Source of the DNA: Candidatus Zixiibacteriota bacterium
Lineage (GTDB): Bacteria; Zixibacteria; MSB-5A5; SM1-73
DNA: 64,000 nt
Direction of reading: 5' to 3'
Assembly: GCA_049679185.1 (NCBI GenBank)
Contig: JBAUFO010000083.1
Span: forward strand, 25,958-89,957
Positions 22,678-63,693 of the stretch are shown in pieces; within the stretch, counting starts at the first letter, position 1, and each line of letters opens with the position of its first letter. Below the pieces are notes generated by a model. It was not told the origin of the DNA. It ran no database searches and saw only the letters and a program-made list of their open reading frames with translations. The position numbers were made by a program, and so were the translations under genes.

Positions 22678-22713
22678 CCAGCACAAGCTATATCGAGAAG
22701 CTCAGGAGAGAGA

Positions 22714-23100
22714 ATGTACAGTGAAAAGGTAATGGAGCATTTCCAGAATCCCCGCAACGTGGGTGAAATCAAAGATGCAGACGGGGTGGGAGAGATTGGG
22801 AATCCGGTCTGCGGGGATATAATGAAGCTTTACATCAAGGTTAACGGCAATCGAATCACCGAGGCTAAATTCAAGACCTTCGGCTGCGGCGCAGCCATAG
22901 CCACCTCCAGCATGGTGACTGAATTGGTCAAGGGCAAGACCCTGGAGGAGGCAGAGAAGATCTCCCGCGACACTGTCGCCCAAGCATTGGACGGCCTGCC
23001 TCCGGTCAAGATGCACTGCTCCAACCTGGCTGCAGACGCCTTGCACAAGGCGATTGAGGATTACAGGGGGAAGACGAAGACCAAAAAGCCTACTTCGTGA
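22714..23100 (+). CDS. iscU: Fe-S cluster assembly scaffold
   Basis: YSEKVMEHFQNPRNVG ... GNPVCGD ... FKTFGCGAAIA ... MHCSNLA, the three conserved Cys of IscU/NifU. Confidence 0.95.
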   Translation: MYSEKVMEHFQNPRNVGEIKDADGVGEIGNPVCGDIMKLYIKVNGNRITEAKFKTFGCGAAIATSSMVTELVKGKTLEEAEKISRDTVAQALDGLPPVKMHCSNLAADALHKAIEDYRGKTKTKKPTS

Positions 23101-23120
23101 GTTTCCATCCGGAGACCTGA

Positions 23121-23897
23121 TTGAACTCAAGGCGCAAGCGAAAGCGAAGCTCGAAGCGAGCCGAGAAGGACCCCAAGACGCAGACATCGTTAGAAGCATT
23201 CAGAACGTTTCTGGGGAATAAGGGTTCAGACATAATACTCAGGCACACACGGCGGCTTTTCCGCACTTTGCCGAAGCGAAAGACAGCCGGAGGCTTCAAG
23301 TCATTTTTCCTATCTGCGGGCGACAAGATCAAGAAGGGGGCTAGCGCCCAAGAGAAGTTTTTAGTCGAACTTTTTCTCAGGTTTTCAGAGATAGACTCCT
23401 CATTGGAGACCCTAAAAGCTTTGCCTGTGTATCTTAAACACTTCCCCAACACGAAACGATTTGTGAAGGCCGGAATAACTGAACGAATGCATATGGTCTA
23501 CCAAATCGAGCACTACCTCCAGGAAGTCTACCTGCTTAAGTGCAGGATGAGACGTTTCCTGGTATTCCTGGGGAGAGAGCTGCGAAAGCGTGGACAACCG
23601 AGAGTGTACGAAAGCTTAGTACAATCGCTACAGCTTTTTGAGGATCGACTCGAGGGCATTCTTCTGGCCAGGGGAGCTCATGTCCACCAGAGGAGATACA
23701 CGGACCCAAGTCTTTATACCTTGTCTCTGTTCGATCTTGTCAAAGCGAATCATCAGGACGTTCAAGTTGGGTATGAACTCTTGCTGTTCGCTGAGAAGGC
23801 AAGGTGGTTGAAATGGATGCAGGAAACTAACCAGTTAATAGTGTGTATGGTCGATACTATCTTCAGCGCAGTCAATGAATATGTCCTTGAGGAATGA
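23121..23897 (+). CDS. hypothetical protein (no recognisable domain), inserted between iscU and mnmA
   Basis: 258-aa ORF starting at TTG 23121 (GGAG 7 nt upstream), basic N-terminus, overlaps the mnmA start by 23 nt. Start site uncertain; longest ORF in any frame here. Confidence 0.5.
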   Translation: MNSRRKRKRSSKRAEKDPKTQTSLEAFRTFLGNKGSDIILRHTRRLFRTLPKRKTAGGFKSFFLSAGDKIKKGASAQEKFLVELFLRFSEIDSSLETLKALPVYLKHFPNTKRFVKAGITERMHMVYQIEHYLQEVYLLKCRMRRFLVFLGRELRKRGQPRVYESLVQSLQLFEDRLEGILLARGAHVHQRRYTDPSLYTLSLFDLVKANHQDVQVGYELLLFAEKARWLKWMQETNQLIVCMVDTIFSAVNEYVLEE

Positions 23898-25011
23898 CGA
23901 GCAAATAGTGGTGGTGGCGATGAGCGGAGGGGTGGACAGTTCGCTGGCCGCTTTCCTGCTACACCAGAAAGGCTACCAGGTGGTGGGAATCTCCATGAAA
24001 CTATGGGATTTCAAGGAGGTGGGCGGGGACGATCACCCGGATGGAAGGTGCTGCTCTTTGGAATCTCTGAATGATGCGCGTGCAGTTTGCCACACGATAG
24101 GAATTCCCCACTACGTGGTCGACATCAGGGATGATTTCAGAGACGAAGTCATCTCGGACTTCGTGGAAGAGTACATGCAGGGAAGAACACCCAACCCCTG
24201 CATAATTTGCAACACCAGGATTAAATGGCAGAGCCTATGGAGAAAAGCCGACTCGTTGGGAGCAGATTTCCTCTCCACCGGGCATTACGCCCGGATACGA
24301 TACGATAAGGCGGCCAGGAGATTTCTGCTGCTCAAGGGGGTCGATTCGAGCCGCGACCAGTCCTACGCCCTGTGGGGGCTCTCCCAGGAAGATCTGAAGA
24401 GGACCCTGTTTCCTCTGGGGGATATGACTAAGAAAGAGGTCAGAACCCAGGCAAGAAAACACAACCTGAAAGTCGCCGAAAGGGAGGAGAGCCAGGAGAT
24501 CTGTTTTGTGACGGACGATGATTACCCCAGGTTCATAAAGGAGTGGAAAAAAGAGGAAGGTTCATCTCCCGACAAAGAAATCACGCCGGGTCCAATTCTC
24601 AGCCTGAAAGGTGAAAAGCTGGGGGAACACAAGGGGATACCTTTCTATACCATAGGACAGAGAAAGGGACTGGGAATCGCCAGGGGAAGGCCCCGGTATG
24701 TGGTGCGGATCGAGCCGGAGGAAAACGCCATATATGTGGGAGAAAATGAGGAACTTCTCCGGTCGTCGTTTGTAGTCCAGGATGTAAACTGGATCGCCTT
24801 CGGCAGCTTGAAGAAAGAAACCGAATGCGAAATAAAGATCAGATATCAACACGTCCCGCAGAAAGGAACGATTTACCCATTGACGGAAGCCCGGGTTATG
24901 GTTAAATTCAATCGACCGGAACGTGCCATCACACCGGGACAGTCTGCGGTGTTTTATCAGGATGAGGTGGTTTTGGGTGGGGGCGTGATTGGGAGAGCTG
25001 TCAACGGATAA
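23875..25011 (+). CDS. mnmA: tRNA-specific 2-thiouridylase
   Basis: VVVAMSGGVDSSLAA (PP-loop) ... NPCIICN ... RDQSYAL ... canonical MnmA. Confidence 0.95.
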   Translation: MNMSLRNDEQIVVVAMSGGVDSSLAAFLLHQKGYQVVGISMKLWDFKEVGGDDHPDGRCCSLESLNDARAVCHTIGIPHYVVDIRDDFRDEVISDFVEEYMQGRTPNPCIICNTRIKWQSLWRKADSLGADFLSTGHYARIRYDKAARRFLLLKGVDSSRDQSYALWGLSQEDLKRTLFPLGDMTKKEVRTQARKHNLKVAEREESQEICFVTDDDYPRFIKEWKKEEGSSPDKEITPGPILSLKGEKLGEHKGIPFYTIGQRKGLGIARGRPRYVVRIEPEENAIYVGENEELLRSSFVVQDVNWIAFGSLKKETECEIKIRYQHVPQKGTIYPLTEARVMVKFNRPERAITPGQSAVFYQDEVVLGGGVIGRAVNG

Positions 25012-33678: not shown

Positions 33679-34776
33679 ATGAAAATCGGTATAGTCGGAC
33701 TTCCATTTGTGGGCAAGACCACGGTTTTTAATGCCTTGACGTGTGGACAGGCCAGAGTGGGCGAATTCTCGCTCGGGGTAAAAGAAGCCAACCGGGGAGT
33801 CGTCAAGGTGCCGGATGAAAGGGTGCATAAACTGGCTACCTTCTATAATCCCAAGAAGGTGACGCCGGCCGAGGTGGAATATATCGACGTTGCCGGGCTG
33901 GTCAAGGAGACCAAGAAAAAAGCTTCGGAGGGAGAATTCTATCATTCCCTAAGGGAGGTCGACGCGCTGGCTCACGTGGTGAGGGTTTTCCAGGATGAAA
34001 ACGTGATTCGCGTCTCCGGCTCGGTGGACTTAAAAAGGGACGTCAAGAACCTGGATCTGGATTTGATCCTGATAGACTTGGACATCGTGGAGAAGAGGCT
34101 GAAGCGCTTGGAAAAGAGCGTGGCCAGCTCCAAGGATGAAGAGGAAAAAAGAGAGCTTCAGGTCCTTCTGAGATTTAAAGAGACCCTGGACCAGGGGATT
34201 CCTCTAAGAGAGATTGAGCTGTCTCCGGGAGAGGAACGGCTAATCCGGGGATATGCCTTTCTCTCTTTGAAGCCCATGCTCATCATACTCAACATAGATG
34301 AGGAGCAAAACGAGCAGAGAGAGCAACTGGAATCGGAATGCTCACAGATGACTAAGGATGAAAAAATCTCCGGCTGCTCTGTTTGCTCCATCTGCGGCAA
34401 GCTGGAGATGGAGCTTTCCCAGCTTGAGGAAGGCGATCGAAGACCCTTCATGGAGGATATGGGCATAAGAGAGCTGGCGATTGAGCGGGTGATTGACGTC
34501 TCCTACAAGCTTCTCAACTTGATCTCGTTTTTCACGGCCAATGAAAACGAGGTCAAGGCCTGGCCGGTTCCTGCGGGAATAAAGGCCATAAAAGCGGCCG
34601 GAACGGTTCACACCGACATGGAGAGAGGCTTCATCAAAGCGGAGGTGATCAGCTTCGACAGGCTGTGGGACTTAGGCTCAGTTCACAAAGTCAAAGAAAA
34701 AGGTGAATTGAGGCTGGAGGGGAAGGAGTATGTGGTTCAGGACGGGGACGTGATCTTTTTCAGATTTAATGTATGA
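33679..34776 (+). CDS. ychF: redox-regulated ATPase YchF (Obg-like GTPase family)
   Basis: MKIGIVGLPFVGKTTVFNALT, central coiled-coil insertion, C-terminal TGS domain (VQDGDVIFFRFN). Confidence 0.9.
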   Translation: MKIGIVGLPFVGKTTVFNALTCGQARVGEFSLGVKEANRGVVKVPDERVHKLATFYNPKKVTPAEVEYIDVAGLVKETKKKASEGEFYHSLREVDALAHVVRVFQDENVIRVSGSVDLKRDVKNLDLDLILIDLDIVEKRLKRLEKSVASSKDEEEKRELQVLLRFKETLDQGIPLREIELSPGEERLIRGYAFLSLKPMLIILNIDEEQNEQREQLESECSQMTKDEKISGCSVCSICGKLEMELSQLEEGDRRPFMEDMGIRELAIERVIDVSYKLLNLISFFTANENEVKAWPVPAGIKAIKAAGTVHTDMERGFIKAEVISFDRLWDLGSVHKVKEKGELRLEGKEYVVQDGDVIFFRFNV

Positions 34777-36749
34777 GCAAAGCAAAAACCCCGGCAAGGA
34801 CGCGGGCCGAAAAGATGATCTGCGGGGGGTGTCTTCTCCTTATTCTCATCCATCTGGCGGCGTCATACTTTCCTTCGGAAAGACTCTGGGGAATAAACCT
34901 GCTTCACTATCTGCCGCACGCTTGGCGATGGATTCTGGCCGTCAGCGCGACTCTGATCCTGATCCCGACTGTCAACAAAGCCTGTGGTAACCTCCTCACC
35001 GGTTTGTCCCGCATCATACCGCCTGGATTCAAAAGAGCAAATAAGTATTACCGATACGCTTTTTTCAGCCTTGTCGCGGGGGTTTTCTTCTGGGTGCTCA
35101 GGGTCAAGACCTACCTTCTGGGAGATAGTCTTGTCAGAGCCAGGGAGATTGATCTGGGCGCCAGATTCTCCTTCACTGCGCCTCTGGATTTTCTTCTGCA
35201 CGTCCAGGTGGCAGGGTTCCTGAACTGGGAAGCTTTTCAAACCTATGCCCTTTTGAGCATACTTTCAGGAGTGGGGTTTGTCTTGCTGCTTCTGCTTTTG
35301 GCAGATCTGATGGGCAGGGACGGCAAAGAGAGACTGCTGGTCTTCTCCGTTTTTATCAGCATGGGAGCAATCCAGCTCTTTTTCGGATACGTTGAAAGCT
35401 ACTCTGTGGTCTGTGCAGCTATACTTCTCTACATCTTCTTTTCATTTGGCTATCTCCGGAACAAGAACGGTCTGATCCCTCCCCTCCTTGCCTTCCTTTT
35501 GGCTTTCAGCCTGCATCTTTTTGCCGTGACCCTGCTCCCTTCGCTCCTTTACCTGATATTATCCGGGCGGGCCGGAAAGAAGGAGAAGAAGCAAGGGAAT
35601 TTTGCCGGGCTCGGTCTGTCCATCGGTATGGTGCTCCTGGTGACCGTGACTCTTTCTCTTGTGCAGAGGTATAATCCCGAACCGAAGGGGCTGGAGTATT
35701 ATCTGATCTCTCCGCTGGGCGGCTGGGAAGGATCATATTCGCTCTTTTCGTTGTCGCACCTTTTGGATCTGATAAATCATCAGCTTCTGGTTTCGCCCGT
35801 GGGTCTGTTGATCTGCCTGACCTCTGTTGTGGCCTTTTCCGGAAAGACTGGCCAAAAGGACCGGGTGGCGCGGTTCCTTCTGATCCTGAGTCTTTGCACT
35901 TTAGCCTATGCCTTCCTGGCAGACCCGAAATTGGGATACCCTCGCGATTGGGACCTGTTTGCGTTCACCGCACTCGGTTACACGCTTCTGGGGCTTCACC
36001 TGTTCCTCAAGTATCGTAGAGGTGCGCAGACAGGAGACTTGCGATACCTCACCCTGGCGTTGCTGTTTACTTCACTGCTTTCCACGATTCCTTGGATCTA
36101 TATCAACGCTGCGGAGGAGACATCGGTGACCAGATTCGAGCACGTTCTGAAGCTTGACAGAGAGAGAAGCGCCCACGGGCACGAGACTCTGGCCATGTAT
36201 TACAACCAGCGCGGCGAATGGCAAAAGGAGTTGGAGCAGTGGAAGAAAGCAGCAGTGGCGGAGGTGAATGCGCGCTACATCAACAACGTGGGGGCAGTCT
36301 ACCACCGGCAGGAGAGGTACGATCTCGCCCTCAAGGAACTGGACAAGTCTCTTGTGGTGGATCCGACCTTCGACCGCACCTATTTCAACAGGGGTGACGT
36401 TCTCGCCCGGATGGGAAGGTATGAGGAGGCCCTGAAGGATTTCCGCCAGGCCATAAGGCTGCGGCCCGACAGAATGCAGTACTACAACAACTTAGCGGGG
36501 CACCTCACGAAACTGGGTCGTGACCAGGAAGCCTTGGAGGTTCTCCAGGAGGGCATGAGCGTGAACCCGGATCATCCGCCTCTTTACCGGGATTTAGGCT
36601 ATAATCATTTCAACCTGGGTGATCTCGTGATGGCAGACAAATACCTTAAGCTCTATTTGGAGCGCGCGCCCGAAGCGGAAGATGCAGCCGAAGTTCGGCA
36701 GTTTCTAAGGGGCCTGCCGGAAAGACGGCAGCAACAACCTAAACCCTAA
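34773..36749 (+). CDS. polytopic membrane + C-terminal TPR protein, paralog 2 (GT-C/TMTC-like suspected); ATGA-overlap with ychF
   Basis: 658 aa; motifs RLWGINLLHY, LLGDSLVRAREI, DPKLGYPRDWDLFAF; C-terminal TPR repeats. Start overlaps the ychF stop (gtATGAgc). Confidence 0.8.
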   Translation: MSKAKTPARTRAEKMICGGCLLLILIHLAASYFPSERLWGINLLHYLPHAWRWILAVSATLILIPTVNKACGNLLTGLSRIIPPGFKRANKYYRYAFFSLVAGVFFWVLRVKTYLLGDSLVRAREIDLGARFSFTAPLDFLLHVQVAGFLNWEAFQTYALLSILSGVGFVLLLLLLADLMGRDGKERLLVFSVFISMGAIQLFFGYVESYSVVCAAILLYIFFSFGYLRNKNGLIPPLLAFLLAFSLHLFAVTLLPSLLYLILSGRAGKKEKKQGNFAGLGLSIGMVLLVTVTLSLVQRYNPEPKGLEYYLISPLGGWEGSYSLFSLSHLLDLINHQLLVSPVGLLICLTSVVAFSGKTGQKDRVARFLLILSLCTLAYAFLADPKLGYPRDWDLFAFTALGYTLLGLHLFLKYRRGAQTGDLRYLTLALLFTSLLSTIPWIYINAAEETSVTRFEHVLKLDRERSAHGHETLAMYYNQRGEWQKELEQWKKAAVAEVNARYINNVGAVYHRQERYDLALKELDKSLVVDPTFDRTYFNRGDVLARMGRYEEALKDFRQAIRLRPDRMQYYNNLAGHLTKLGRDQEALEVLQEGMSVNPDHPPLYRDLGYNHFNLGDLVMADKYLKLYLERAPEAEDAAEVRQFLRGLPERRQQQPKP

Positions 36750-36775
36750 AATGTAATCGTTTGCAGCAAGAATAG

Positions 36776-38779
36776 TTGATGAACCGCCTTCAAATAACGA
36801 TTCTGGCAACTTGTGGACTTTTGATCTTAGCTCGCATCGTCGCTTCCTTCTTCCCCCACCTGAGATTCTGGGGCCTCAGTCAACTTCATTATTTTTCGCT
36901 GGAGTTCCGGATTGGACTATCCGTGATCGGGCTGCTGATCCTGATTCCCAGGGTAAACAAGATCGTGGCCGGGGTGCTGGGTAGGGTCTTTGACTCGATC
37001 GCGGAAAGACTCAAAAAGATGAACAGGTATCTGTTATACTCTGCTACCAGCTTCCTCAGCCTGATTCCTTTCTGGCTTCTCAGATCCAGGACGCCGTTGC
37101 TGGGTGACGGTTACATGCGGGCCGGGGAGATCAGAATGGGGAAGCTTTTCTCCGTGGCTGAACCGCTTGATGCTTTGCTACACCTCCTGTTCTCAAAGTT
37201 CTTCGGCCTTGATGCATACACCACCTATGGAGTTTTGAGCTGCCTGGCGGGCGGGCTATTTGTTTTTCTGCTTCTTCTTCTATGTGACCTCCTGGGAGAG
37301 AATGGCAGGGAGAAGTTGCTTATCTTTTCGGTGGTACTCACCATGGGGGCGACACTGTTGTTTTTCGGGTACATAGAGAGCTATACCCTCATGTATGCAG
37401 CTATGGCCGGCTACGTTCTTTTTGCCGTGAGATATCTGAAAGGAAGAGGCGGATTTTTGCTGCCGTGTGTTTTCATGGTCTTGACAGCCGGCTTCCATCT
37501 TTCTGCTATCTTCGTTCTACCCTCACTGTTCTACTTAGCCTTTGCTCCAGTTATCCCAGGCAGTGGACAGAAGGTCAGAAAGTCTCGGTTCGTCAACCCC
37601 GTAATCCTTACCTTTGTAACGGCTCTCATCGGATTAGGTTTTTACGTTGTGCGGGCTGGTTCCTCCCAAGGCTCGGTCGGTCATCTTTTGATTTACCCGT
37701 TCGGTGGTGGCGATGAAGGCTACTCTTTTTTTTCCCTGGGACACCTGCTCGACTTTGTGAACCACCAGATCTTGGTCTCTCCGGTGAATGTGGTTTTGTG
37801 GATGGTTCTTTTGCTTCTCTTCTGGAGGAGGATCAGCCTGAAAGACAATGTGGCCAGATTTCTGTTCTGGTTGGGCATCTGTTCATTGGGATTTGCCCTG
37901 CTGGTCGATCCCAAGCTGGGATATGCCCGGGACTGGGATCTCTTCGCCTTTTCCAGTTTAGGTGCTACCCTGCTGGGGTTGTATTTGATTTTGAGTCTTG
38001 TCGGAGAGCTAACCCAAGCGGCATCCAGTCCTGGACAGGAGCAAACGCCAGGGGGCGGAGAAGGCCGAGCAATGGATTTGAGGCCGGTCACCTTGGCTCT
38101 GGTTGTTACCTCCCTGGTATCCACCTTGCCCTGGATACTGGTCAACGCCTCGGAGCAAAAGGCGGTGGCCCGTTTTGAGGACCTGCTGAAGATGGATGAA
38201 AAAGGAACAGCCCACGGCTACGAGACGCTCGCCTGTTATTTTCGAGACAGGGGGGAACACCAAAGGAGCGCTAAATCATGGAGAGACGCCATTGCCTTAA
38301 ATCCGGGTCCCCGCTATTTCGGCGCCTTAGGAAACGCGTACCAGAGGTTGGGAGAATATGATAAGGCCATAGAGGCCTATGATCGGTCTCTCCGGATGGC
38401 GTCGCACTTTCCCGGCGTGGCCAGGGTGCATAAGAACTTCGGCAACACCTTAGCCAAAGCCGGTCGGTTTGAGGAGGCAGTGCTTCAATTGAAGAAAGCT
38501 ATCGACCTGAGACCGGGAAGAACGGAGGTCCATCAGAGTTTAGGCAACATTCTGGGAAAGCTGGGAAGATATCAGGAGGCAGTCCCGTACCTGGAGATGG
38601 CGCTGGAGTCGGACCCCGGCAACGTCGCCCTATACAAAGCGCTGGGAACATGTTACGCGGCAATGGGAAGAAAAGAGGAGGCTGGAATGTACCTGAAGAC
38701 CTACCTGCAATCGAGACCTGAGGATGCCCGGAAGATAGAAGAGATCATGGATAGCCTGGAAGTTGACATACAATACTAA
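36776..38779 (+). CDS. polytopic membrane + C-terminal TPR protein, paralog 3
   Basis: 667 aa; RFWGLSQLHYFSLEFRI, LLGDGYMRAGEI, DPKLGYARDWDLFAF. About 60% identical to paralog 4 across the membrane domain by eye. Confidence 0.8.
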   Translation: MMNRLQITILATCGLLILARIVASFFPHLRFWGLSQLHYFSLEFRIGLSVIGLLILIPRVNKIVAGVLGRVFDSIAERLKKMNRYLLYSATSFLSLIPFWLLRSRTPLLGDGYMRAGEIRMGKLFSVAEPLDALLHLLFSKFFGLDAYTTYGVLSCLAGGLFVFLLLLLCDLLGENGREKLLIFSVVLTMGATLLFFGYIESYTLMYAAMAGYVLFAVRYLKGRGGFLLPCVFMVLTAGFHLSAIFVLPSLFYLAFAPVIPGSGQKVRKSRFVNPVILTFVTALIGLGFYVVRAGSSQGSVGHLLIYPFGGGDEGYSFFSLGHLLDFVNHQILVSPVNVVLWMVLLLLFWRRISLKDNVARFLFWLGICSLGFALLVDPKLGYARDWDLFAFSSLGATLLGLYLILSLVGELTQAASSPGQEQTPGGGEGRAMDLRPVTLALVVTSLVSTLPWILVNASEQKAVARFEDLLKMDEKGTAHGYETLACYFRDRGEHQRSAKSWRDAIALNPGPRYFGALGNAYQRLGEYDKAIEAYDRSLRMASHFPGVARVHKNFGNTLAKAGRFEEAVLQLKKAIDLRPGRTEVHQSLGNILGKLGRYQEAVPYLEMALESDPGNVALYKALGTCYAAMGRKEEAGMYLKTYLQSRPEDARKIEEIMDSLEVDIQY

Positions 38780-38964
38780 TAATTGCGCAGAGATTGCCTG
38801 CGAAAGAGGCCCAAGCAAAGGCAGAACCGTTTATGCTAATTCAGGCAGTTCTGGAGCAATCAAGAATTCCTGCGGCAGTACGAATACTACATGCCTCTGG
38901 CTACGGATTGGGCGCAGGTAGTGTGGACCATTGACAATACAAGTAAAAGAATGAAGGAACGCTG

Positions 38965-41019
38965 ATGCCCAAACGCTCGGATGTAAAGAGCATCTCCATT
39001 GCAGACAGTGTGGGCGCAAAGATAGAGAGGTTTATTCTGCTTACCTGCGCCTTCTTGATCCTTGTTCGTCTGCTGGCTTCCTTCTTTCCCAACTTAAGAC
39101 TCTGGGGCATCAGTCAACTTCACTACTTTTCGCTGGAGTTCCGCATAGCAGTATCCGCTGTCGTGCTTTTGCTGCTGCTCCCCAGGGTGAACAAGATCCT
39201 TACCAGGGCACTGGCTGGAATCTTCGCCTGGATAGTAGGGAGATTCAGGAAGACCAACAGATATCTTCTGTACCTCGCCATAAGCGTACTCAGCCTGATC
39301 CCCTTTTGGCTTCTCAGAGCCGAAACGCCTCTGCTTGGTGACGGATACCTGCGCGCGGGTGAGCTCAAGCTGGGTGTCCTGTTGTCGATTACCGAACCTT
39401 TGGATTTCTATCTGCATCTATTGGTTTACAGGCTGTTCGGCCTGGACAGCTACACCACTTATGCGGTTCTCAGCTGCCTGGCAGGTGGACTTTACGTGTT
39501 TCTGACTCTTCTCTTATCGCATCTTCTGGGAAAGGACGGAAAAGAGAAGTTATTCATCTTTCTGATCCTGGCTACTATGGGAGCCACCCAGCTGTTCTTC
39601 GGGCACATCGAGAGCTACTCGTTCATGTTCGTGGCCGTCCTCGCATATATTTTCTTCGGGATCAGATACCTGCAGGGGAAAGGCGCTTTTTTGTGGGCCG
39701 GTCTTTTTCTCCTTTTGGCTGTGAGCTTCCATCTCACCGCTCTTTTCGTCCTGCCTTCTTTGTTCTATCTGGTCTTTGCCAGGTTTTCCGCAGCGAGCAG
39801 TTCGAAGGCCGCGAGGCTTAAGTTTGCCAATATCGTGGTCTTAATCTGTGTGGTCTTCGTGATCGGGGCCGCACTCCATCTTCGGGGCACCTACCTGACG
39901 GAAGAGACGATCGGCTCCCCTCTGATTTATCCCTTCGGAGGCGGGGAGGGCTTCTACTCCTTCTTCTCCCTGGCTCACCTTCTGGATTTCCTGAACCACC
40001 AGTTGCTGATCTCCCCGGTAAGCCTGGTCCTCTGGGCAGTACTTCTGGTTTTGTTCCGGAGGGAGATCAACTTCAGGGAGAACGTGGTTAGATTCTTGAT
40101 TTGGATCACGGCGTGCTCGTTTGGCTTCGCCCTGCTTGCCGATCCAAAGCTGGGATATGCCCGGGACTGGGACCTTTTCGCTTCTTGCGGCTTAGGTGTC
40201 ACCCTCCTGGGATTGTATCTGACGGTCAGTCTTCTCAGAGACCGGCCCAGGGCTGCGTTCGCTGCCGGACCGGAGCGAACGGCTCACCGGGAAGAAGGAG
40301 CAGTAATGGATTTAAGGCGGGTGACCCTGCTTCTGGTCGCCACCTCCCTGGCGTCGACTTTGCCTTGGATTTTGGTCAATGCCTCGGAGCAAAAGGCGGT
40401 CGCGCGCTTTGAGAGTCTGCTCTCCATCGATGAAGAAAGGGGGGCCCACGGCTATGAGACTATGGCCTGTTATTTTCGTGATAAGGGTGAGCACGAAAAA
40501 ACAATTGGATTGTGGAAAAACGCTATTGCCATCAATCCGATTCCACGCTATTATGCCGTGCTGGGAAATGCGTACCTGAGAGTGAAAAGATACGATGAGG
40601 CCATAGAGGTGCTGGAGAAATCCATAGGGATGGCGCCGAATCGCCGGGGCATCCAGTATTCGCATAGAAGCTTGGGCGTCTGCCTATCAGCAAAGGGTCG
40701 CTACGATGAGGCGATATCCCATCTGAGGATTGCCATTGATTTAGCACCCGGCAGAGCAGATTTTCATTATATCATGGGCAACATTCTGGGTAAGGCGGGA
40801 AGATACGAAGAAGCAGTTCCGTACTTCGAGACAACATTAGGACTGAACCCGGCAGAAATCAATTCGTATAAGCTCTTGGGGATAGCCTTTGCCCGAATGG
40901 GAAAAAAAGAGGAGGCCGAAAGATACTTGGAGACGTACCTGAGGTTGGCGCCACAAGATGCAGCCGGGCTGAAGGGGATAATTGATAGTATTGAAATTGA
41001 GATAGATTCCGGCCGATAG
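38965..41019 (+). CDS. polytopic membrane + C-terminal TPR protein, paralog 4
   Basis: 684 aa; RLWGISQLHYFSLEFRI, LLGDGYLRAGEL, DPKLGYARDWDLFAS; AAGGA RBS. Confidence 0.8.
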   Translation: MPKRSDVKSISIADSVGAKIERFILLTCAFLILVRLLASFFPNLRLWGISQLHYFSLEFRIAVSAVVLLLLLPRVNKILTRALAGIFAWIVGRFRKTNRYLLYLAISVLSLIPFWLLRAETPLLGDGYLRAGELKLGVLLSITEPLDFYLHLLVYRLFGLDSYTTYAVLSCLAGGLYVFLTLLLSHLLGKDGKEKLFIFLILATMGATQLFFGHIESYSFMFVAVLAYIFFGIRYLQGKGAFLWAGLFLLLAVSFHLTALFVLPSLFYLVFARFSAASSSKAARLKFANIVVLICVVFVIGAALHLRGTYLTEETIGSPLIYPFGGGEGFYSFFSLAHLLDFLNHQLLISPVSLVLWAVLLVLFRREINFRENVVRFLIWITACSFGFALLADPKLGYARDWDLFASCGLGVTLLGLYLTVSLLRDRPRAAFAAGPERTAHREEGAVMDLRRVTLLLVATSLASTLPWILVNASEQKAVARFESLLSIDEERGAHGYETMACYFRDKGEHEKTIGLWKNAIAINPIPRYYAVLGNAYLRVKRYDEAIEVLEKSIGMAPNRRGIQYSHRSLGVCLSAKGRYDEAISHLRIAIDLAPGRADFHYIMGNILGKAGRYEEAVPYFETTLGLNPAEINSYKLLGIAFARMGKKEEAERYLETYLRLAPQDAAGLKGIIDSIEIEIDSGR

Positions 41020-43834: not shown

Positions 43835-44000
43835 CCCTGGTGCATTCTGAAGTGAGACGAGGTACGCGCATATGAGAAAGGATTTGCTTTTTTTGCTTTT
43901 TGTTCTGGTGTGGTCTATTATATTGCCAGGGTATTTTACCTGCAGCGATGGGTCCGGCTCTAAGGAAGAGCCGGGCTTAGAAAAGGAGGGAAGGTTCAAA

Positions 44001-45443
44001 ATGGGACAGGTCAGAAAGCCCGCAGTTGCGGGTCAGTTTTATCCCGGCGATCCGGTAACCCTAACCAGAGAGTTGTCGGATTTCTTTAAGAAAGCCAAAA
44101 AGGAGCCGGTGCCGGGAAAGATCGTGGCGTTGATATCTCCGCATGCCGGCTATATGTATTCGGGCCAGGTCGCAGCTTACTCCTTCAAGCTCTTGGAGGG
44201 CCTTTCCTTCGAGACGGTGGTGGTGATCTCTCCCAGCCACGTGGCTTACTTTCCAGGTGCCTCAATTTACAACGGCGGCTCTTACGAAACCCCCCTGGGT
44301 CAGATTCCTGTGGATACCACTCTGGCAGGGAAGATAGCAGATACGAGCAAAAAGGTATTTCTTTCCGACAAGGGGCACAGTTTTGCGGGGATGAGAGGAG
44401 AGCACGCTCTGGAAGTTGAGCTTCCCTTCCTTCAGCTGGTATTGGGCAAATTCAAGCTGGTTCCCATCGTCATAGCTGACCAGGACTGGGCCACCTGCGA
44501 GGCCCTGGGAGAAGCCCTCTCGAAGGCCCTTAAGGGGAAGAACGCCCTGATCGTGGCCAGTACCGACCTGTCGCATTTCCATCCGTACGATGAGGCGGTT
44601 AGATTGGACAACATCGTGATGAACCATGTGAACTCCTTCGATCCCGAAGAACTCCACTCCGATTTGGCCTCCAAAGTCTGCGAAGCCTGCGGAGGAGGCC
44701 CGGTGGTGGCGACCATGCTGGCTGCCAAGGGGCTGGGGGCAGACAAGGCCAAGGTTTTAGAGTATGCCAACTCCGGAGACGTGACCGGTGACAAATCCGG
44801 GGTGGTCGGATATATGGCGGCGGTGATCTATGACTCCAAACCAGCCGGTGACAGCAGAAAGAAATCGGAGGAAAAGAGCGAGGTTGTCGAATCCGGTCTC
44901 TCCGAGGATGACAAGAAAACGCTAATGAACATCGCCCGGACCACCATAGAGCACAGGGTGAAAGGAGAAGCTCTGCCGGAGTTTGAAGTCGACTCGCCCA
45001 TCTTAAAGGAGAACCGCGGTGCCTTCGTCACCATTCATAAGCAGGGGCGTCTGAGAGGATGCATCGGCTACATCCAGGCCATCAAGCCCCTCTACGTCAC
45101 CATTCAGGAGATGGCAGAGGCTGCAGCCCTCAACGACCATCGCTTTCCGCCGGTATCTCCGGAGGAGCTTGACGCTCTTGATCTGGAGATCTCCGTTCTT
45201 ACCCCCTTGCGAAAGATCGAGGACGTAAATGAAATAGAGACGGGAAAGCACGGGATCGTGCTGAAAAAAGGATACCACCAAGGTGTTTTCCTTCCGCAGG
45301 TGGCCACTGAGCAGGGCTGGGATCGGACCACCTTCCTCAACCAGATATGTTTCAAGGCGGGCATTCACGACAAGAACTGCTGGAAAGATGAGGACGCGGA
45401 GATATTCATCTACTCAGCCGAGGTTTTCAAGGAGAAGAAATAA
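44001..45443 (+). CDS. fusion of AmmeMemoRadiSam system protein B (MEMO1-like) and protein A (AMMECR1 domain)
   Basis: From the ATG at 44001 (AAGGAGG 10 nt upstream): MGQVRKPAVAGQFYPGDP ... ISPHAGYMYSG (Memo family), then the C-terminal AMMECR1 core GAFVTIHKQGRLRGCIG ... GVFLPQV. The listed ORF start at 43872 adds a hydrophobic extension with no RBS. Confidence 0.8.
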   Translation: MGQVRKPAVAGQFYPGDPVTLTRELSDFFKKAKKEPVPGKIVALISPHAGYMYSGQVAAYSFKLLEGLSFETVVVISPSHVAYFPGASIYNGGSYETPLGQIPVDTTLAGKIADTSKKVFLSDKGHSFAGMRGEHALEVELPFLQLVLGKFKLVPIVIADQDWATCEALGEALSKALKGKNALIVASTDLSHFHPYDEAVRLDNIVMNHVNSFDPEELHSDLASKVCEACGGGPVVATMLAAKGLGADKAKVLEYANSGDVTGDKSGVVGYMAAVIYDSKPAGDSRKKSEEKSEVVESGLSEDDKKTLMNIARTTIEHRVKGEALPEFEVDSPILKENRGAFVTIHKQGRLRGCIGYIQAIKPLYVTIQEMAEAAALNDHRFPPVSPEELDALDLEISVLTPLRKIEDVNEIETGKHGIVLKKGYHQGVFLPQVATEQGWDRTTFLNQICFKAGIHDKNCWKDEDAEIFIYSAEVFKEKK

Positions 45444-58967: not shown

Positions 58968-58996
58968 TTGACTTGATTGGAGAAAAGTTGTATAAT
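58968..58996 (+). promoter_or_regulatory. near-consensus sigma70 promoter (TTGACT, 17 nt, TATAAT) for the class-V aminotransferase gene
   Basis: TTGACT 58968-58973, TATAAT 58991-58996, start codon 30 nt downstream. Confidence 0.65.
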
Positions 58997-59025: not shown

Positions 59026-60201
59026 ATGGAAAAGCTGATTTATCTTGACAGCGGCGCGACCACCTTTCCAAAACCTGAAGAGGTTTATGTGGCGATGGAT
59101 GAATTCTCTCGCTGCTGCGGAGTCAACCCGGGTCGCTCGGGGTACGATCTCTGCATGGTAGCCGGATCCATGGTCGAGGAAACCCGCAAGCTTCTCACCC
59201 GATTCTTCAACGGAACTGATCCCAACCGTCTGATCTTTGCTTACAACGCCACGGACGCTCTGAATCTGGCCATCTTCGGTTTGCTGAAGGAGGGCGATCA
59301 TGTGATCACCTCCAATATAGAACATAATTCTGTCATTCGGCCGCTCTACCATCTCTACAAGTATGGCGGGGTCGAAGTCGATCATGTCCCCTTTGACGGT
59401 CAGGGATTTCTGGACCCGGACGAGTTCGCCCGGCGTTTCAAGAAGAACACCAAACTGGTTGCGATCAATCACGCCTCCAACGTCATCGGCACCGTGCAGC
59501 CGGTTGGGGAAATCGGACGGCTCTGCCGGGAGCGCGGAATCACCTTTGTGGTCGACTCTGCCCAGTCGGCGGGCAAGATTCCGGTAGATATGGAAGAGCT
59601 TAATATCGACGTGGTGGCTTTCACCGGCCACAAGTCTCTTATGGGACCGATGGGGATAGGCGGACTCTATGTCCGTGAAGGTATTGAGATCCGGCACACC
59701 CGCGCCGGCGGCACAGGCGTGCGCTCGGCCGTCCGCACTCACTTGGACGAATACCCATACCGGCTGGAGTACGGTACCCCGAACCTGCCGGGAATAGCGG
59801 GGTTAAACGCCGGCGTCAAATGGGTGCTTGAGGAAGGGATGTCAACGATCCACGGACGCGAAACAAAGCTGCTCCGTATGTTGAGGGACGGGTTGCGGGA
59901 AATAGAAGGCGTGACCCTGCACTGCCAAGATAATCTTGACAATCACATCGGCATTCTCTCGTTCAATGTGGAGGGGCTGGAGGCAATGGACACTGGTACC
60001 ATGCTGGACGTCGACTACAGCATAACCAGCCGCACCGGCTTGCACTGCGCTCCCCGGGTGCATGAGCAGCTGGGCACTGATAAGATTCATGGATCGGTAA
60101 GATTCGGGATAGGCCCCTTAAATACCGCCGAAGATATCGAAGCCGCCATCAGTGCTGTGGGAGAAATCGCCCGAATTCGTCAAAAGCAGAAGACCTGTTG
60201 A
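59026..60201 (+). CDS. class-V aminotransferase / cysteine-desulfurase-like PLP enzyme
   Basis: LDSGATTFPKP, FTGHKSLMGPMGIGGLYV (PLP-Lys), and a C-terminal Cys in TSRTGLHCAP resembling a desulfurase/selenocysteine-lyase active-site loop. Confidence 0.85.
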   Translation: MEKLIYLDSGATTFPKPEEVYVAMDEFSRCCGVNPGRSGYDLCMVAGSMVEETRKLLTRFFNGTDPNRLIFAYNATDALNLAIFGLLKEGDHVITSNIEHNSVIRPLYHLYKYGGVEVDHVPFDGQGFLDPDEFARRFKKNTKLVAINHASNVIGTVQPVGEIGRLCRERGITFVVDSAQSAGKIPVDMEELNIDVVAFTGHKSLMGPMGIGGLYVREGIEIRHTRAGGTGVRSAVRTHLDEYPYRLEYGTPNLPGIAGLNAGVKWVLEEGMSTIHGRETKLLRMLRDGLREIEGVTLHCQDNLDNHIGILSFNVEGLEAMDTGTMLDVDYSITSRTGLHCAPRVHEQLGTDKIHGSVRFGIGPLNTAEDIEAAISAVGEIARIRQKQKTC

Positions 60202-60237
60202 CTGGTGATATTGACCTTCCGGCCGACCTTTCTCATG

Positions 60238-61587
60238 TCATCTCTCCTTCTTCTCAATCACCAGAGCGTCTGCGAGCACCTCGGACACGGTCTTGATCTC
60301 TACTTTAAGGTCATATTCGCGGTTAAGCTCGCTGAGTTGGTCGATACAGTTGTGACAAGGAGTGACCACGATCTCAGCTCCGGTCTCTCGGATCTGATCT
60401 GCCTTGATCTTGCCTGTCTCCAATCGCCTCTTGGCATAGCGTGTCATGGCTAACTGACCCCCGCCGCCGCCGCAACATAAATTCTTTTCGCGATTCGGAT
60501 ACATCTCCACGAAGTCGGTGACCGCATTGTTGAGAATGTAGCGCTGTTCTTCGATGATGCCGCCCAGGCGCACCAGGTTGCAAGGATCATGAAGTGTCAC
60601 CACTTTCTGATTGCGCGAAGGGTCCAGCTTGATGCGTCCCTGGCGGATATAATCAGCGATGATTTGAATAACGCTTTTGACCTCGAATCTGTCCTCTGTT
60701 GCCATCCACTCCGGCGCTTCCCAGCGATTGGAATTATAGCCGTGACCGCATTCACCCAGGACCAGTATCTTGGCGCCGAACTTAGCCATTGACTCGCGCA
60801 AACGCGATGAAATCAGGGCCGCCGCTTCGTCATCGCCACTGTAAAGGCCATAGTTGGTAACGTCATAGTAGTCGGCTGATACGGTCCAGCTTTCCCTGGC
60901 GGCGTAGAATATCTTGGCAGTAGCCAGAAGAGACAACGGAAAGAATTTCGGTTCGCGCGGGTTGACGGTGTAAAGGATTTTCGTTCCCGGCTTATCGACC
61001 GGCAGATGCGCCTGCGGATCGCCCACCTCCATCTGCAGTTCTTCGCTCAACCACTGGAGTGTATCCAGCCACTCCTCCCGGGGAATGCCCATATTATTCC
61101 CCTTTTCCACGGCGGTGGTCACCGTTGACTGCAGGCCGGGCGGAACAAGGTCGATGGAAGCCAGGCTGGTTCTGGCCATGCGGATTAAACGCGTTATGTT
61201 GATACCCATGGTGCAGTTGAGCGCGCAGCGTCCACACAGGGTGCAGCGTCCGAACAGCGAATCGACCCATTGCTCGACCATCCGGGCATCCAAAGCACTA
61301 TCACCTTCGCTCCCTTTTGCCAGTCCGCCCAGCACGGTCAGGAGCTTTCTGAATACCGAGCTTACCAGTTTGAGTTTGTAGGCCGGGATGGCCTCAGTCT
61401 CTCCGGTGACCACAAAGTAGTGGCAGGAGTCGGCGCAAAGGCCGCAGTTGACGCATGACTGCAGGTTGGCAACTGCTTTGTGGTCAAGCAGTTGCTTGAA
61501 GGACTTAAGGGCCGATTTCAGTTGTTCCGCTTTGAGGCCGCGGATGCGCTCTAAATAAGTATCTTTTGAGTCTACCTCGGATGCCAT
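60238..61587 (-). CDS. HdrD/DsrK-like iron-sulfur protein (two [4Fe-4S] ferredoxin motifs + CCG domains)
   Basis: CVNCGLCADSCHY and CTLCGRCALNC cluster motifs; CCG-domain signatures LCCGGGGG and HDPCNLVR/TPCHNC. Confidence 0.8.
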   Translation of the reverse strand: MASEVDSKDTYLERIRGLKAEQLKSALKSFKQLLDHKAVANLQSCVNCGLCADSCHYFVVTGETEAIPAYKLKLVSSVFRKLLTVLGGLAKGSEGDSALDARMVEQWVDSLFGRCTLCGRCALNCTMGINITRLIRMARTSLASIDLVPPGLQSTVTTAVEKGNNMGIPREEWLDTLQWLSEELQMEVGDPQAHLPVDKPGTKILYTVNPREPKFFPLSLLATAKIFYAARESWTVSADYYDVTNYGLYSGDDEAAALISSRLRESMAKFGAKILVLGECGHGYNSNRWEAPEWMATEDRFEVKSVIQIIADYIRQGRIKLDPSRNQKVVTLHDPCNLVRLGGIIEEQRYILNNAVTDFVEMYPNREKNLCCGGGGGQLAMTRYAKRRLETGKIKADQIRETGAEIVVTPCHNCIDQLSELNREYDLKVEIKTVSEVLADALVIEKKER

Positions 61588-61590
61588 ATG

Positions 61591-62226
61591 CTAAGCTTTC
61601 TTTGAAGGATGAGGAAGCACACCTCTCCGGCCAAAGAACTCGCCGAAGAGAATCCGACTGTAGAAGAAGAAAGCGCAGTGACGAAGTTTCCCGAATGGGA
61701 TGTAAACAAAGATAATGATGGCTACAAAAAGAAATGCCATGTGTACAGTTTCGGTGAAAGTCGATGTTAGAGCCGATAACAGGAAAAGGTCGACCAGAGA
61801 GTTGGCCAGATAGTCATCACCGCTGCTCAAGGACCTCATCTGTGCTTTAAGTATTCTCTTGATGAGCAGCGCCACTCCGCAAACCACGCCGATGAACAGT
61901 AGTATTCGTGCTGCCTGCAGAAACGGTGCAAAAAGTGAAATGTGCAGTACCACCGTTGCCAGAAACAGCATTGCCATCAGTATGCCGACGTGATAAAGGA
62001 TGCCGCCCATATAAGTCCAAATATGTTTGGCAGCGCTCTCCTTTTCCCAGGGCAGCATGCCCGGCCCGAAGGCGTACATAATACCCGCGAACCTGCTGCC
62101 TCGTGGGTGTGCATAGGTCGGTCTCCGGCCGAAGGCGAAAGTTCGCGCGACCAGCAACCTTAGAACGACGAGGCAGAACAGCAGCGAAGCCGCTACACCC
62201 AGTTTCAGTAACGCAAATAGAGACAT
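61591..62226 (-). CDS. NarI-like cytochrome b membrane subunit (DsrM/HdrE-like)
   Basis: 211 aa, 5 predicted TM helices with His residues placed for bis-heme ligation; 3 nt upstream of the HdrD/DsrK-like gene. Confidence 0.55.
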   Translation of the reverse strand: MSLFALLKLGVAASLLFCLVVLRLLVARTFAFGRRPTYAHPRGSRFAGIMYAFGPGMLPWEKESAAKHIWTYMGGILYHVGILMAMLFLATVVLHISLFAPFLQAARILLFIGVVCGVALLIKRILKAQMRSLSSGDDYLANSLVDLFLLSALTSTFTETVHMAFLFVAIIIFVYIPFGKLRHCAFFFYSRILFGEFFGRRGVLPHPSKKA

Positions 62227-62235
62227 TTTGAGGAC

Positions 62236-62556
62236 CTATACACAGCCGTCCGGCTTGGGCAGACCGGCAATCTTACACGCCCCCTTGGCAGGACCTGAGG
62301 GGAATAGTTCGTAAATGCGGCGAAGAGGCAGGCTGGTGGTCTTACAAATGGAACGAACCATAGGCGCTAAGTTGGTTTCCAGGTAATGATTCCGAATGAA
62401 TTCAATGACCGCCCAGTGTTCTGCGGTCAAATCATCGATACCTTCTGCAGCTTTGGCCAAAACCTCCGCAGCCTGTTTATCCCACTGACTGGAATCTGTC
62501 AGAAACCCCTCTTCGTTTAGCTCTAATTTCTTGTCACCGACATCGAGATGAGACAT
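62236..62556 (-). CDS. DsrC/TusE-family sulfur-relay protein carrying both conserved C-terminal cysteines
   Basis: 106 aa ending ...GPAKGACKIAGLPKPDGCV (Cys-x10-Cys-Val, the DsrC arm); conserved HW.VI.F.R..Y core. Confidence 0.85.
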   Translation of the reverse strand: MSHLDVGDKKLELNEEGFLTDSSQWDKQAAEVLAKAAEGIDDLTAEHWAVIEFIRNHYLETNLAPMVRSICKTTSLPLRRIYELFPSGPAKGACKIAGLPKPDGCV

Positions 62557-62904: not shown

Positions 62905-63693
62905 ATGGACGCAGTTGATATTTCACAAGTTCTGCGCGACGCAGAGAACGCTTTGCGTGATTTCATAGCGTTTAAGCTCCAGAAATCTATCGGAGATAAT
63001 TGGATTGAACTATGTGGGGTATCACCGGAGCGGATCGAGAGGTGGAAAGAGCGAAAGGAAATTGAAGAAAAGAAGCAGGTGGCTGGAGTAGTTGAAGAGC
63101 GGTTGATCTACTACGCGGACTTCTACGATCTGATAACAATTCTGAAGCATCGGTGGTCGGAAGACTTTTCGGAGGTTTTTGGAAAATGGAAAGACATGGA
63201 GGTGTGGCTCAGCACGCTCGAAGATTTACGTAATCCTGAAGCTCATAGAAGAGAGCTACTTCCTCACCAAAAGCAGCTAGCCGCTGGTATAGCAGGTGAG
63301 ATTAGAACCCGGATCGTTCGTTATCGTAGCAAGGACGTAGCGGTCGACAACTACTTCCCCCGAATTGAGAGCGCTCGCGACAACCATGGTAATCTGTTTA
63401 CTGCCGGCGAGTCAAGTATGTTCGACACAGGCACCGTTCTTCACCCTGGTGACGACTTGGAGTTCATCGTGACTGCCTCCGACCCCTATGGTCAGAAGTT
63501 ACAGTACGGATTCGGGGTTGGCAGCGATCATCCCTGGCAAGACAGCAACCAGTTTGCTCTGAGGGTTACAGCCGATCACATTGGCAAAGACTTTTACGTC
63601 TCTTTGCGCATCCAGAGTGAGCGCGATTACCATGCGCACAGTTTCTGTGATGACTTTGTTGAGTTCGTCTATACAGTTCTACCGACGAGCTAG
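62905..63693 (+). CDS. HEPN-domain protein (Swt1-like Rx4H RNase motif) with a C-terminal beta-rich domain of unknown function
   Basis: N-terminal ~120 aa: ALRDFIAFKL ... W ... LEDLRNPEAHRRE (R-x4-H HEPN motif). C-terminal ~140 aa without recognisable motifs. Confidence 0.55.
   Translation: MDAVDISQVLRDAENALRDFIAFKLQKSIGDNWIELCGVSPERIERWKERKEIEEKKQVAGVVEERLIYYADFYDLITILKHRWSEDFSEVFGKWKDMEVWLSTLEDLRNPEAHRRELLPHQKQLAAGIAGEIRTRIVRYRSKDVAVDNYFPRIESARDNHGNLFTAGESSMFDTGTVLHPGDDLEFIVTASDPYGQKLQYGFGVGSDHPWQDSNQFALRVTADHIGKDFYVSLRIQSERDYHAHSFCDDFVEFVYTVLPTS

Follow-up and report, generated by a model that had tools for sequence, protein, structure and literature searches.

In Archaeoglobus, Desulfovibrio and Allochromatium, the small sulfur carrier DsrC is paired with the membrane complexes DsrMK or DsrMKJOP. 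A DsrC with two cysteines in its C-terminal arm has been taken as a signature of dissimilatory sulfur metabolism based on DsrAB, and both dsrC and dsrMK are used as markers in metagenomes. Here we describe a cassette of four genes, at positions 59026 to 62556 of a 64,000-nucleotide stretch (hereafter the window, meaning the whole stretch that was analyzed) of contig JBAUFO010000083.1 from the Candidatus Zixiibacteriota bacterium assembly GCA_049679185.1, in which a two-cysteine DsrC and a DsrK-like membrane module stand beside a cysteine desulfurase. We propose, with a probability of roughly one half, that this locus encodes a self-contained, DsrAB-independent DsrC sulfur/redox cycle that is fed from cysteine rather than from sulfite.

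The closest described systems each share part of this design. Like DsrC with DsrMK or DsrMKJOP, the cassette combines a two-cysteine DsrC arm with a CCG subunit (an iron-sulfur protein with two [4Fe-4S] motifs, a single CCG motif and the sequence GECGH) and a predicted five-helix b-type membrane partner, and a quinone-linked redox change of the DsrC cysteines is predicted. Unlike those systems, the cassette loci that we compared carry no dsrAB, dsrJOP, dsrD, dsrN or dsrT, the DsrK-like subunit scores below the DsrK cut-off, the membrane subunit matches no DsrM model and has three conserved histidines, and the conserved partner of the cassette is a cysteine desulfurase, which implies another source of sulfur. 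HmcEF and TmcBC of Desulfovibrio are the best-scoring curated families for the anchor and the CCG subunit, and the single CCG motif and (T/G)ECGH are common to both. Nevertheless, the cassette proteins fall far under the cut-offs of these families, and, unlike the Hmc and Tmc complexes, the cassette has no periplasmic cytochrome c or other Hmc/Tmc subunit and carries dsrC inside its operon. The signature that unites DsrK, HmcF and TmcB consists of two [4Fe-4S] motifs, one CXnCCGXnCX2C motif and a catalytic cysteine in (T/G)ECGH (Barbosa et al., PMC10861901), and di-heme DsrM and NarI require four histidines (PMC10861901).

More distant comparisons can be made with respiratory and biosynthetic systems. 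Mycobacterial EtfD (PDB 9ojn) has a five-helix plus HdrD-like architecture, with a single heme b bound through two histidines beside a menaquinone site; its shielded clusters have no catalytic role, and its electrons come from ETF, whereas the cassette has an intact catalytic-type CCG motif and GECGH cysteine together with a co-encoded thiol protein as substrate. Methanogen HdrDE differs from the cassette in having two CCG motifs and a di-heme HdrE. The relays IscS-TusA-TusBCD-TusE, SufS-SufE and CsdA-CsdE resemble it in joining a pyridoxal phosphate (PLP) cysteine desulfurase to a small cysteine-bearing acceptor, which here belongs to the DsrC/TusE family; unlike them, the cassette has no TusA, TusBCD, SufE or CsdE, and its DsrC, with two arm cysteines, is tied to a membrane redox complex. 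The module would function like DsrC/DsrMK, and it is built like HmcEF/TmcBC and EtfD/HdrDE. In the searchable literature we found no earlier description of a two-cysteine DsrC paired with a dedicated TIGR01977 desulfurase, no specific account of a cluster of dsrC, an HdrD-like gene and a cysteine desulfurase gene, and no specific report of dsrC/dsrMK without dsrAB in Zixibacteria or Aminicenantes.

Results

A first-pass annotation of the window had reported three minus-strand genes that converge with a gene for a class-V aminotransferase, and the list of open reading frames (ORFs) reproduces this layout exactly:

62236-62556, minus strand: DsrC-type sulfur carrier (106 amino acids), matching Pfam DsrC and TIGR03342, with arm cysteines C94 (CysB) and C105 (CysA) and a further cysteine, C71

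61591-62226, minus strand: predicted five-helix membrane anchor (211 amino acids) with a putative fold like that of NarI and EtfD, probably a subunit that binds (mono-)heme b and interacts with quinone

60238-61587, minus strand: putative cytoplasmic iron-sulfur subunit of catalytic type (449 amino acids), assigned to the DsrK/HmcF/TmcB type by motifs and profile scores, here called the CCG protein

59026-60201, plus strand: SufS-like (group II) cysteine desulfurase of the TIGR01977 family (391 amino acids), convergent to the operon

Because only 9 nt separate dsrC from the anchor gene and only 3 nt separate the anchor gene from the CCG gene, we regard the trio as an operon. The spacing between these genes is 3-15 bp across related loci, and the trio is kept together in most of them. 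The desulfurase gene runs toward the trio, with 36 bp between the two stop codons.

We used the CCG protein as the query in a genome search, which found relatives in 430 species-level stretches, and compared the best 80 loci. These best 80 of the 430 belong to Zixibacteria (66-91% identity), to Aminicenantes/Acidobacteriota (~60-65%) and to a few other phyla, and the closest among them, at 82-91% identity, are Zixibacteria. When the flanking ORFs of the 80 loci were clustered, only DsrC, the anchor, the CCG protein and the convergent desulfurase recurred; the next commonest neighbor family was present at 19 of the 80, and the flanks vary even among close Zixibacteria. At the 63 loci that could be evaluated, DsrC and the desulfurase occurred together in 50, DsrC occurred alone in 8, neither was present in 5, and the desulfurase never occurred without DsrC (Fisher's test, p = 2e-4, over loci that are phylogenetically non-independent).

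A reciprocal test started from the other end of the cassette, with the desulfurase as the query in a metagenome collection. We kept 80 loci with at least 70% identity, 67 of which were evaluable, and in 66 of these 67 a DsrC gene, a CCG gene or both lay beside the desulfurase gene, convergent with it except for 3 divergent CCG genes. The arrangements were as follows:

CCG gene convergent directly after the desulfurase gene, as in the window: 43 loci

divergent CCG gene at that same position: 3 loci

DsrC gene convergent directly after the desulfurase gene, with no membrane complex in the locus: 12 loci

DsrC gene convergent after the desulfurase gene, with a divergent anchor/CCG pair upstream: 8 loci

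evaluable, with neither a DsrC nor a CCG gene: 1 locus

too short: 13 loci, 10 of them not evaluable and 3 partly evaluable with nothing found

Every window-type metagenome locus with sufficient room (30 of 30) also carries DsrC. Given these arrangements, including the loci without a membrane complex, we conclude that the core association is that of the desulfurase with DsrC and that the membrane complex is the usual third partner. The desulfurase, which the first-pass annotation had treated as a neighbor, is in fact the most tightly linked partner of DsrC, even where the membrane complex is missing. Chance adjacency of the desulfurase was also considered, and the reciprocal synteny test rules it out.

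Other genes recur at some of these loci. Inside the cassette of Aminicenantes-type loci there is a gene for cysteine synthase A, CysK (L038:11335-12393, L124:7169-8242 and L130:1897-2949, and likewise L044, L047, L140 and L138), which follows the CCG gene in some cases and stands between dsrC and the desulfurase gene in others; its product passes TIGR01139 (365-378 bits) and ends in a cysteine-rich C-terminal tail (..CSIHCCTL...ARCCVLEPC). Divergent from the desulfurase gene in 13-19 genome loci and several metagenome loci, including many Aminicenantes loci, are genes for a cupin and for a 328-amino-acid alpha/alpha-toroid protein with a weak squalene-hopene-cyclase-like match (examples are L068:8438-9790, L159:4741-5727 and L124:3807-4187), and these neighbors may represent lineage synteny or a further partner. 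One Zixibacteria relative has a gene for a 755-amino-acid nSTAND3 NTPase between the CCG and desulfurase genes (L004:11354-13621).

The small protein had been described in the first-pass annotation as a DsrC/TusE-family member bearing both cysteines of bona fide DsrC, and our comparisons agree and separate it from TusE. It matches Pfam DsrC (PF04358, 8.3e-35) and passes TIGR03342 (108.9 bits, cut-off 53.5), whereas it fails the TusE equivalog NF008562 (83 bits, cut-off 191). Its best matches in the PDB are DsrC from the DsrAB complexes of Desulfovibrio gigas and D. vulgaris together with archaeal DsrCs (1e-27 to 1e-29), and a TusE-like sulfurtransferase is matched at 1.7e-7, against 1e-29 for DsrC. 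Identity to the D. gigas and D. vulgaris proteins (1e-29) is 47% overall and rises to 22-23 of 27 residues in the C-terminal arm (22 of 27 for D. vulgaris). The C-terminus, ..GACKIAGLPKPDGCV, holds Cys94 and Cys105, spaced like CysB and CysA (11 residues), and the arm sequence AGLPKPDGCV is one substitution from AGLPKPTGC, the DsrC-specific C-terminal motif used by DiSCo (PMC8477390), so that it matches this motif when one mismatch is allowed.

Among 47 relatives of the window DsrC, C105 (CysA) is conserved in 100% and C94 (CysB) in 91%. C71, a third cysteine that is specific to the DsrC clade of the cassette, is invariant (100%). In 4 of the 47 (L027, L054, L071 and L032; ..GAAKIAGLPKPDGCV), CysB is replaced by alanine, with CysA and C71 kept. 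Proteins of this group are often named TusE in the JGI annotation. On the basis of the profile scores and the arm motif, we class the small protein as DsrC-type and not as TusE.

For the 449-amino-acid protein, the first-pass annotation had proposed an HdrD/DsrK-like protein with two [4Fe-4S] motifs and CCG domains. Both cluster motifs are indeed present (C45xxC48xxC51xxxC55 and C115xxC118xxC121xxxC125), and so is a CCG domain, although the plural has to be given up: only one CCG motif is complete (C336, C371, C372, C411 and C414), and the other is degenerate, retaining only the cysteine of GECGH (278-282), as in DsrK, HmcF and TmcB. The motif cysteines and C280/H282 are conserved at 98-100% among 65 relatives, and every element of the DsrK/HmcF/TmcB signature is found in the window protein. 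Its NCBIfam scores are 294 bits for HmcF, 278 for TmcB and 230 for DsrK, and since these lie below all three equivalog cut-offs (750, 735 and 400, respectively), we place it in a sister clade that is a member of none of the three families. Its best PDB match is EtfD (9ojn_A, 1e-9). We conclude that the protein is a predicted catalytic-type subunit of the DsrK superfamily in a clade of its own. A GlpC/GlcF-type assignment was considered and is ruled out by the scores, which are 40 bits for GlpC and 37.5 bits for GlcF against 230-294 bits for the families above (HdrB reaches ~20 bits).

The membrane anchor departs furthest from what the first-pass annotation had suggested, namely a NarI-like, bis-heme subunit that would complete a minimal DsrMK-type complex. 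At E < 0.01 the 211-amino-acid protein has no Pfam match, including PF02665 (Nitrate_red_gam), and no match to the NCBIfam DsrM models, and a PDB sequence search with the anchor alone and as a 34-sequence profile returned no match, NarI included. Weak but significant NCBIfam matches were obtained for HmcE and TmcC (E ~1e-9; cut-offs 275 and 240). The anchor family itself is compact, with only 416 clusters at E <= 1e-3 in a profile search of 1.84 billion representatives. The window anchor is 100% identical to the NCBI protein WBF13_04730, which is encoded on a 96.6-kb contig. Across 121 full-length representatives, histidine is conserved at H68 (90%), H79 (99%) and H183 (97%); there is no fourth histidine column and no other column with at least 30% histidine, and H162 of the window anchor is present in 2% of relatives.

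Given that only three histidines are conserved and that EtfD offers a precedent for a single heme, one heme, bound by H79 and H183, is the parsimonious reading, and the anchor is probably mono-heme rather than bis-heme. It is probably a quinone-interacting subunit with a putative five-helix NarI/EtfD-like fold. The NarI likeness thus does not extend to the sequence level, and the label of minimal DsrMK does not hold either, for DsrK is matched below threshold, HmcEF/TmcBC are nearer by score, DsrM is not matched, and there are three histidines where four would be expected. A protein of 670 amino acids in the representative library (P0489) is a natural fusion of an anchor and a CCG protein with EtfD-like architecture, in which GECGH reads SPCGH, and this fusion supports the view that the two proteins form one complex.

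We also observed a sister clade of the anchor/CCG pair (L120, L127, L158, L159, L124, L140, L111 and L154), with 25-27% identity in the anchor and 37-42% in the CCG protein and with scores of 311 bits for HmcF and 54 bits for HmcE. It is joined to the same desulfurase-DsrC pair in other arrangements. In the anchor of this clade, histidine conservation is limited to the counterparts of H79 and H183 and to the histidine of a GHRG sequence.

The convergent gene had been called a PLP class-V desulfurase-like gene, and the assignment stands: the 391-amino-acid product matches Aminotran_5 (3e-90) and passes TIGR01977 (427.2 bits, cut-off 377). Its PLP lysine K203 (GHK) and catalytic cysteine C341 (RTGLHCAP) are invariant in 42 relatives, and, judged by these motifs, it is a catalytically complete group II (SufS-like) desulfurase. 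Group II desulfurases normally require a dedicated acceptor.

The window holds a second site of sulfur mobilization, a plus-strand cluster at 21038-25011 made up of an Rrf2/IscR-like regulator (21038-21499), a NifS equivalog (21496-22677, 581 bits), a 258-amino-acid ORF with no Pfam or NCBIfam match (23121-23897) and MnmA (23875-25011). Since a housekeeping NifS therefore exists near MnmA, we take the desulfurase of the cassette to be a second, dedicated copy. Thiolation of tRNA in this organism appears to be served without a Tus relay, in an arrangement of NifS and MnmA that resembles the Tus-independent YrvO-MnmA of Bacillus subtilis.

The first-pass annotation had seen no dsrAB, aprAB or sat in the window, and our Pfam scan and a search for DsrA and DsrB signature peptides bear this out. 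The same question was put to the related loci, by signature peptides in 80 genome loci and the window and by gene maps and the Pfam/NCBIfam annotation of recurrent neighbors in 80 metagenome loci and locus L164. No dsrAB was seen within ±6-10 kb of these ~160 loci, no dsrD, dsrN, dsrT or dsrJOP was linked to the cassette in them, and neither tusA nor tusBCD was found near it. The DsrA/DsrB primer-site peptides WKHGG, THWKH and CGNCY are absent from the window and the 80 genome loci, by a crude scan that gives a weak negative.

Zixibacteria TRIP_5 (LS998015.1), a single contig of 3,508,505 bp that is 99.94% complete, has the full cassette, and its proteins are 70% (DsrC, with both cysteines), 47% (anchor, with the same three histidines), 63% (CCG protein, with GECGH) and 75% (desulfurase) identical to those of the window. 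According to the paper on TRIP_5, dissimilatory sulfate reduction genes, listed there as sat, aprAB and dsrAB, were present in the two Desulfatiglans genomes alone, and the rest of the community is described as degrading necromass by fermentation. Another genome, Zixibacteria SM23_73_3, has a cassette locus with the same flanks as the window, and the estuary study behind it names no Zixibacteria bin among those for which its text reports dsr genes. The cassette is also common in Aminicenantes, which are not among the lineages given as dsrAB carriers in the text of the surveys consulted; in two of these surveys the name itself has no match.

Other features of the window

Two promoter-like sequences flank the cassette genes:

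58968-58996, plus strand: predicted sigma-70-like promoter TTGACT-17-TATAAT, agreeing with 11 of 12 consensus positions, ~30 bp upstream of the desulfurase start codon

62592-62620, minus strand: weak promoter-like match TTGCCA-17-TATCTT, agreeing with 9 of 12 positions, upstream of dsrC and followed by a GGAGGA ribosome-binding site

The first of these is the near-consensus promoter that had been noticed earlier, now placed on the sequence; the second does not exceed the chance level in shuffled sequence. The 36-bp gap between the convergent genes contains no hairpin resembling an intrinsic terminator (z-score 0.5), and scanning the window for tRNAs and Rfam families yielded no match.

Every large ORF was scanned against Pfam, and the remainder of the window is of a housekeeping nature (TamB/BamA, Lon, TPR proteins, lipid A genes, ccmABC and signal peptidase I). 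Divergent from dsrC lies a gene for a 262-amino-acid HEPN_Swt1-domain protein (62905-63693, plus strand, E 3e-10), which is missing from the relatives' loci; two short Logan contigs were the sole source of an exact match to it. Look-ups of this protein and of the NCBI-called membrane protein, aimed at the sequence past the end of the window, gave Logan contigs of 1.4-2.6 kb and not the 96.6-kb contig. On the plus strand, 34773-41019 encodes a tandem array of three TPR-repeat proteins (658, 667 and 684 amino acids) that are apparently paralogs, and a fourth, of 722 amino acids, is encoded on the opposite strand at 18316-20484 (minus). A fused Memo-like and AMMECR1 protein of 523 amino acids is encoded at 43872-45443 (plus strand), in an ORF that overlaps the start of the listed downstream M23 peptidase ORF.

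Discussion

Our starting point is what the loci display, namely what the four proteins are and which motifs they carry, their operon/convergent layout and their co-occurrence across phyla. From these we infer that the desulfurase would convert L-cysteine to alanine and transfer the sulfane sulfur from its Cys341 to CysA (C105) of the DsrC arm, a step for which there is a parallel in the persulfuration of Allochromatium vinosum DsrC at CysA by IscS and cysteine in vitro. CysB (C94) would then resolve the persulfide, releasing sulfide and leaving DsrC as an intramolecular disulfide or trisulfide. The CCG subunit, with one non-cubane cluster site and the GECGH cysteine, would sit on the putative five-helix heme b anchor, and through this subunit DsrC and the (mena)quinone pool would exchange two electrons. 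By homology with DsrMK/DsrMKJOP, which perform this role for DsrC-trisulfide, the CCG/anchor complex would re-reduce DsrC, and it is known that menadiol reduces DsrC-trisulfide through DsrMKJOP (PMC10861901). With electrons flowing in this direction, the net reaction would be cysteine + quinol to alanine + sulfide + quinone.

Several considerations weigh against such a cycle. A full Dsr pathway exists in some Zixibacteria, CysB has been described as almost exclusive to organisms with dsrAB, and the search for dsrAB around our locus covers the 64-kb window rather than the whole genome. Since the loci share phylogenetic descent, fewer independent observations underlie the co-occurrence counts than the numbers suggest, and the desulfurase gene is convergent to the operon rather than co-transcribed with it. 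The absence of CysB from 4 of 47 DsrCs means that CysA-CysB chemistry is not obligatory in the clade, and the recurring CysK is not accounted for by a purely cysteine-degrading role. In addition, menaquinol (~ -70 mV) may be able to reduce a DsrC disulfide or persulfide only against the potential gradient, and the proton-motive force could not assist if the anchor holds one heme; thermodynamically, the oxidative direction would then be easier.

Given that the reducing power of menaquinol may not suffice and that an anchor with one heme would be uncoupled from the proton-motive force, operation in reverse is a serious rival, and although we think it unlikely, no other alternative fares better. 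The membrane complex would in this case oxidize the DsrC persulfide or dithiol and deliver electrons into the quinone pool, as EtfD does, and the DsrC disulfide or trisulfide so formed would represent an activated sulfur species or an electron source from cysteine sulfur. Such a direction fits the three conserved histidines (two in the sister clade), which are compatible with the single cytoplasm-side heme of EtfD and a flow of electrons toward menaquinone, as well as typical protein disulfide and trisulfide potentials, which lie below menaquinone (PMC10861901), and the view that DsrMKJOP is oxidative in sulfur oxidizers. Without rDsrAB, however, there is no evident consumer of DsrC trisulfide at any locus, and the sole activity demonstrated for the family is menadiol-dependent reduction (PMC10861901).

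Canonical sulfite or sulfate reduction, with DsrC and a minimal DsrMK at this locus, dsrAB, apr, sat and qmo elsewhere in the genome and the desulfurase as an unrelated neighbor, seems improbable to us. The bona fide two-cysteine DsrC, the reported near-restriction of CysB to dsrAB organisms and the complete Dsr pathways of some Zixibacteria all speak for it, as does the fact that the window is only 64 kb of a 96.6-kb contig. Yet the CCG protein falls under the DsrK equivalog (230 versus 400 bits) and scores higher on HmcF and TmcB, and the anchor has neither a DsrM or NarI match nor the fourth histidine of di-heme DsrM. In ~160 loci the cassette is accompanied by the desulfurase and never by dsrAB; it is common in the Aminicenantes, which the surveys consulted do not place among dsrAB carriers in their text; and TRIP_5 possesses it with no sulfate-reduction genes reported for that genome. 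The evidence favors what the first-pass annotation had offered as one possibility, that the DsrC-dependent module serves a purpose different from canonical sulfite reduction. The outcomes that this annotation had named as refuting it, a small protein of TusE type and a CCG protein of GlpC type, were both contradicted by our scores, and this supports its reading.

More doubtful still is a DsrC-centered cysteine cycle that would assign a part to CysK. The persulfide of desulfurase-loaded DsrC would act through CysK as the nucleophile on O-acetylserine, giving a DsrC-S-S-cysteine heterodisulfide, which the HdrD-like CCG enzyme would then reduce with quinol, and this would amount to a true bacterial heterodisulfide reductase cycle. 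If it operated, Zixibacteria and Aminicenantes that degrade necromass by fermentation would respire with cysteine sulfur as electron acceptor, and the cycle would be a previously unrecognized sulfide-producing process that is invisible to surveys based on dsrAB markers.

Least probable of all is a TusE-like biosynthetic relay, in which the desulfurase and the DsrC-family protein would supply sulfur for tRNA thiolation or a thio-cofactor while the membrane Fe-S complex would either have a function of its own or serve only to hold the carrier in its reduced state: the DsrC/TusE family does include tRNA-thiolation carriers fed by a cysteine desulfurase, and the desulfurase-DsrC pairs without a membrane complex (12 metagenome loci), the TusE-like CysB-to-Ala change in four homologs and the frequent JGI name TusE are in keeping with it, but the protein falls short of the TusE equivalog (83 versus 191 bits) and is far nearer DsrC, no tusA or tusBCD is nearby, MnmA adjoins the housekeeping NifS elsewhere in the window, and the dsrC, anchor and CCG genes stay 3-15 bp apart and together in most loci.

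The distribution of the cassette has a consequence for how marker genes are read. Given that it is widespread, with 430 species-level matches to the CCG protein, and that no dsrAB is found nearby, the number of sulfite and sulfate reducers would be overestimated by any survey that relies on dsrC or dsrK alone. The four-protein cassette also offers a simple system for the action of a single non-cubane cluster and the GECGH cysteine on DsrC. If the cysteine-fed, DsrAB-independent cycle that we favor is correct, the DsrC/CCG redox cycle can run on organic sulfur, and there would be quinone-linked sulfide production from cysteine in abundant uncultured sediment bacteria.

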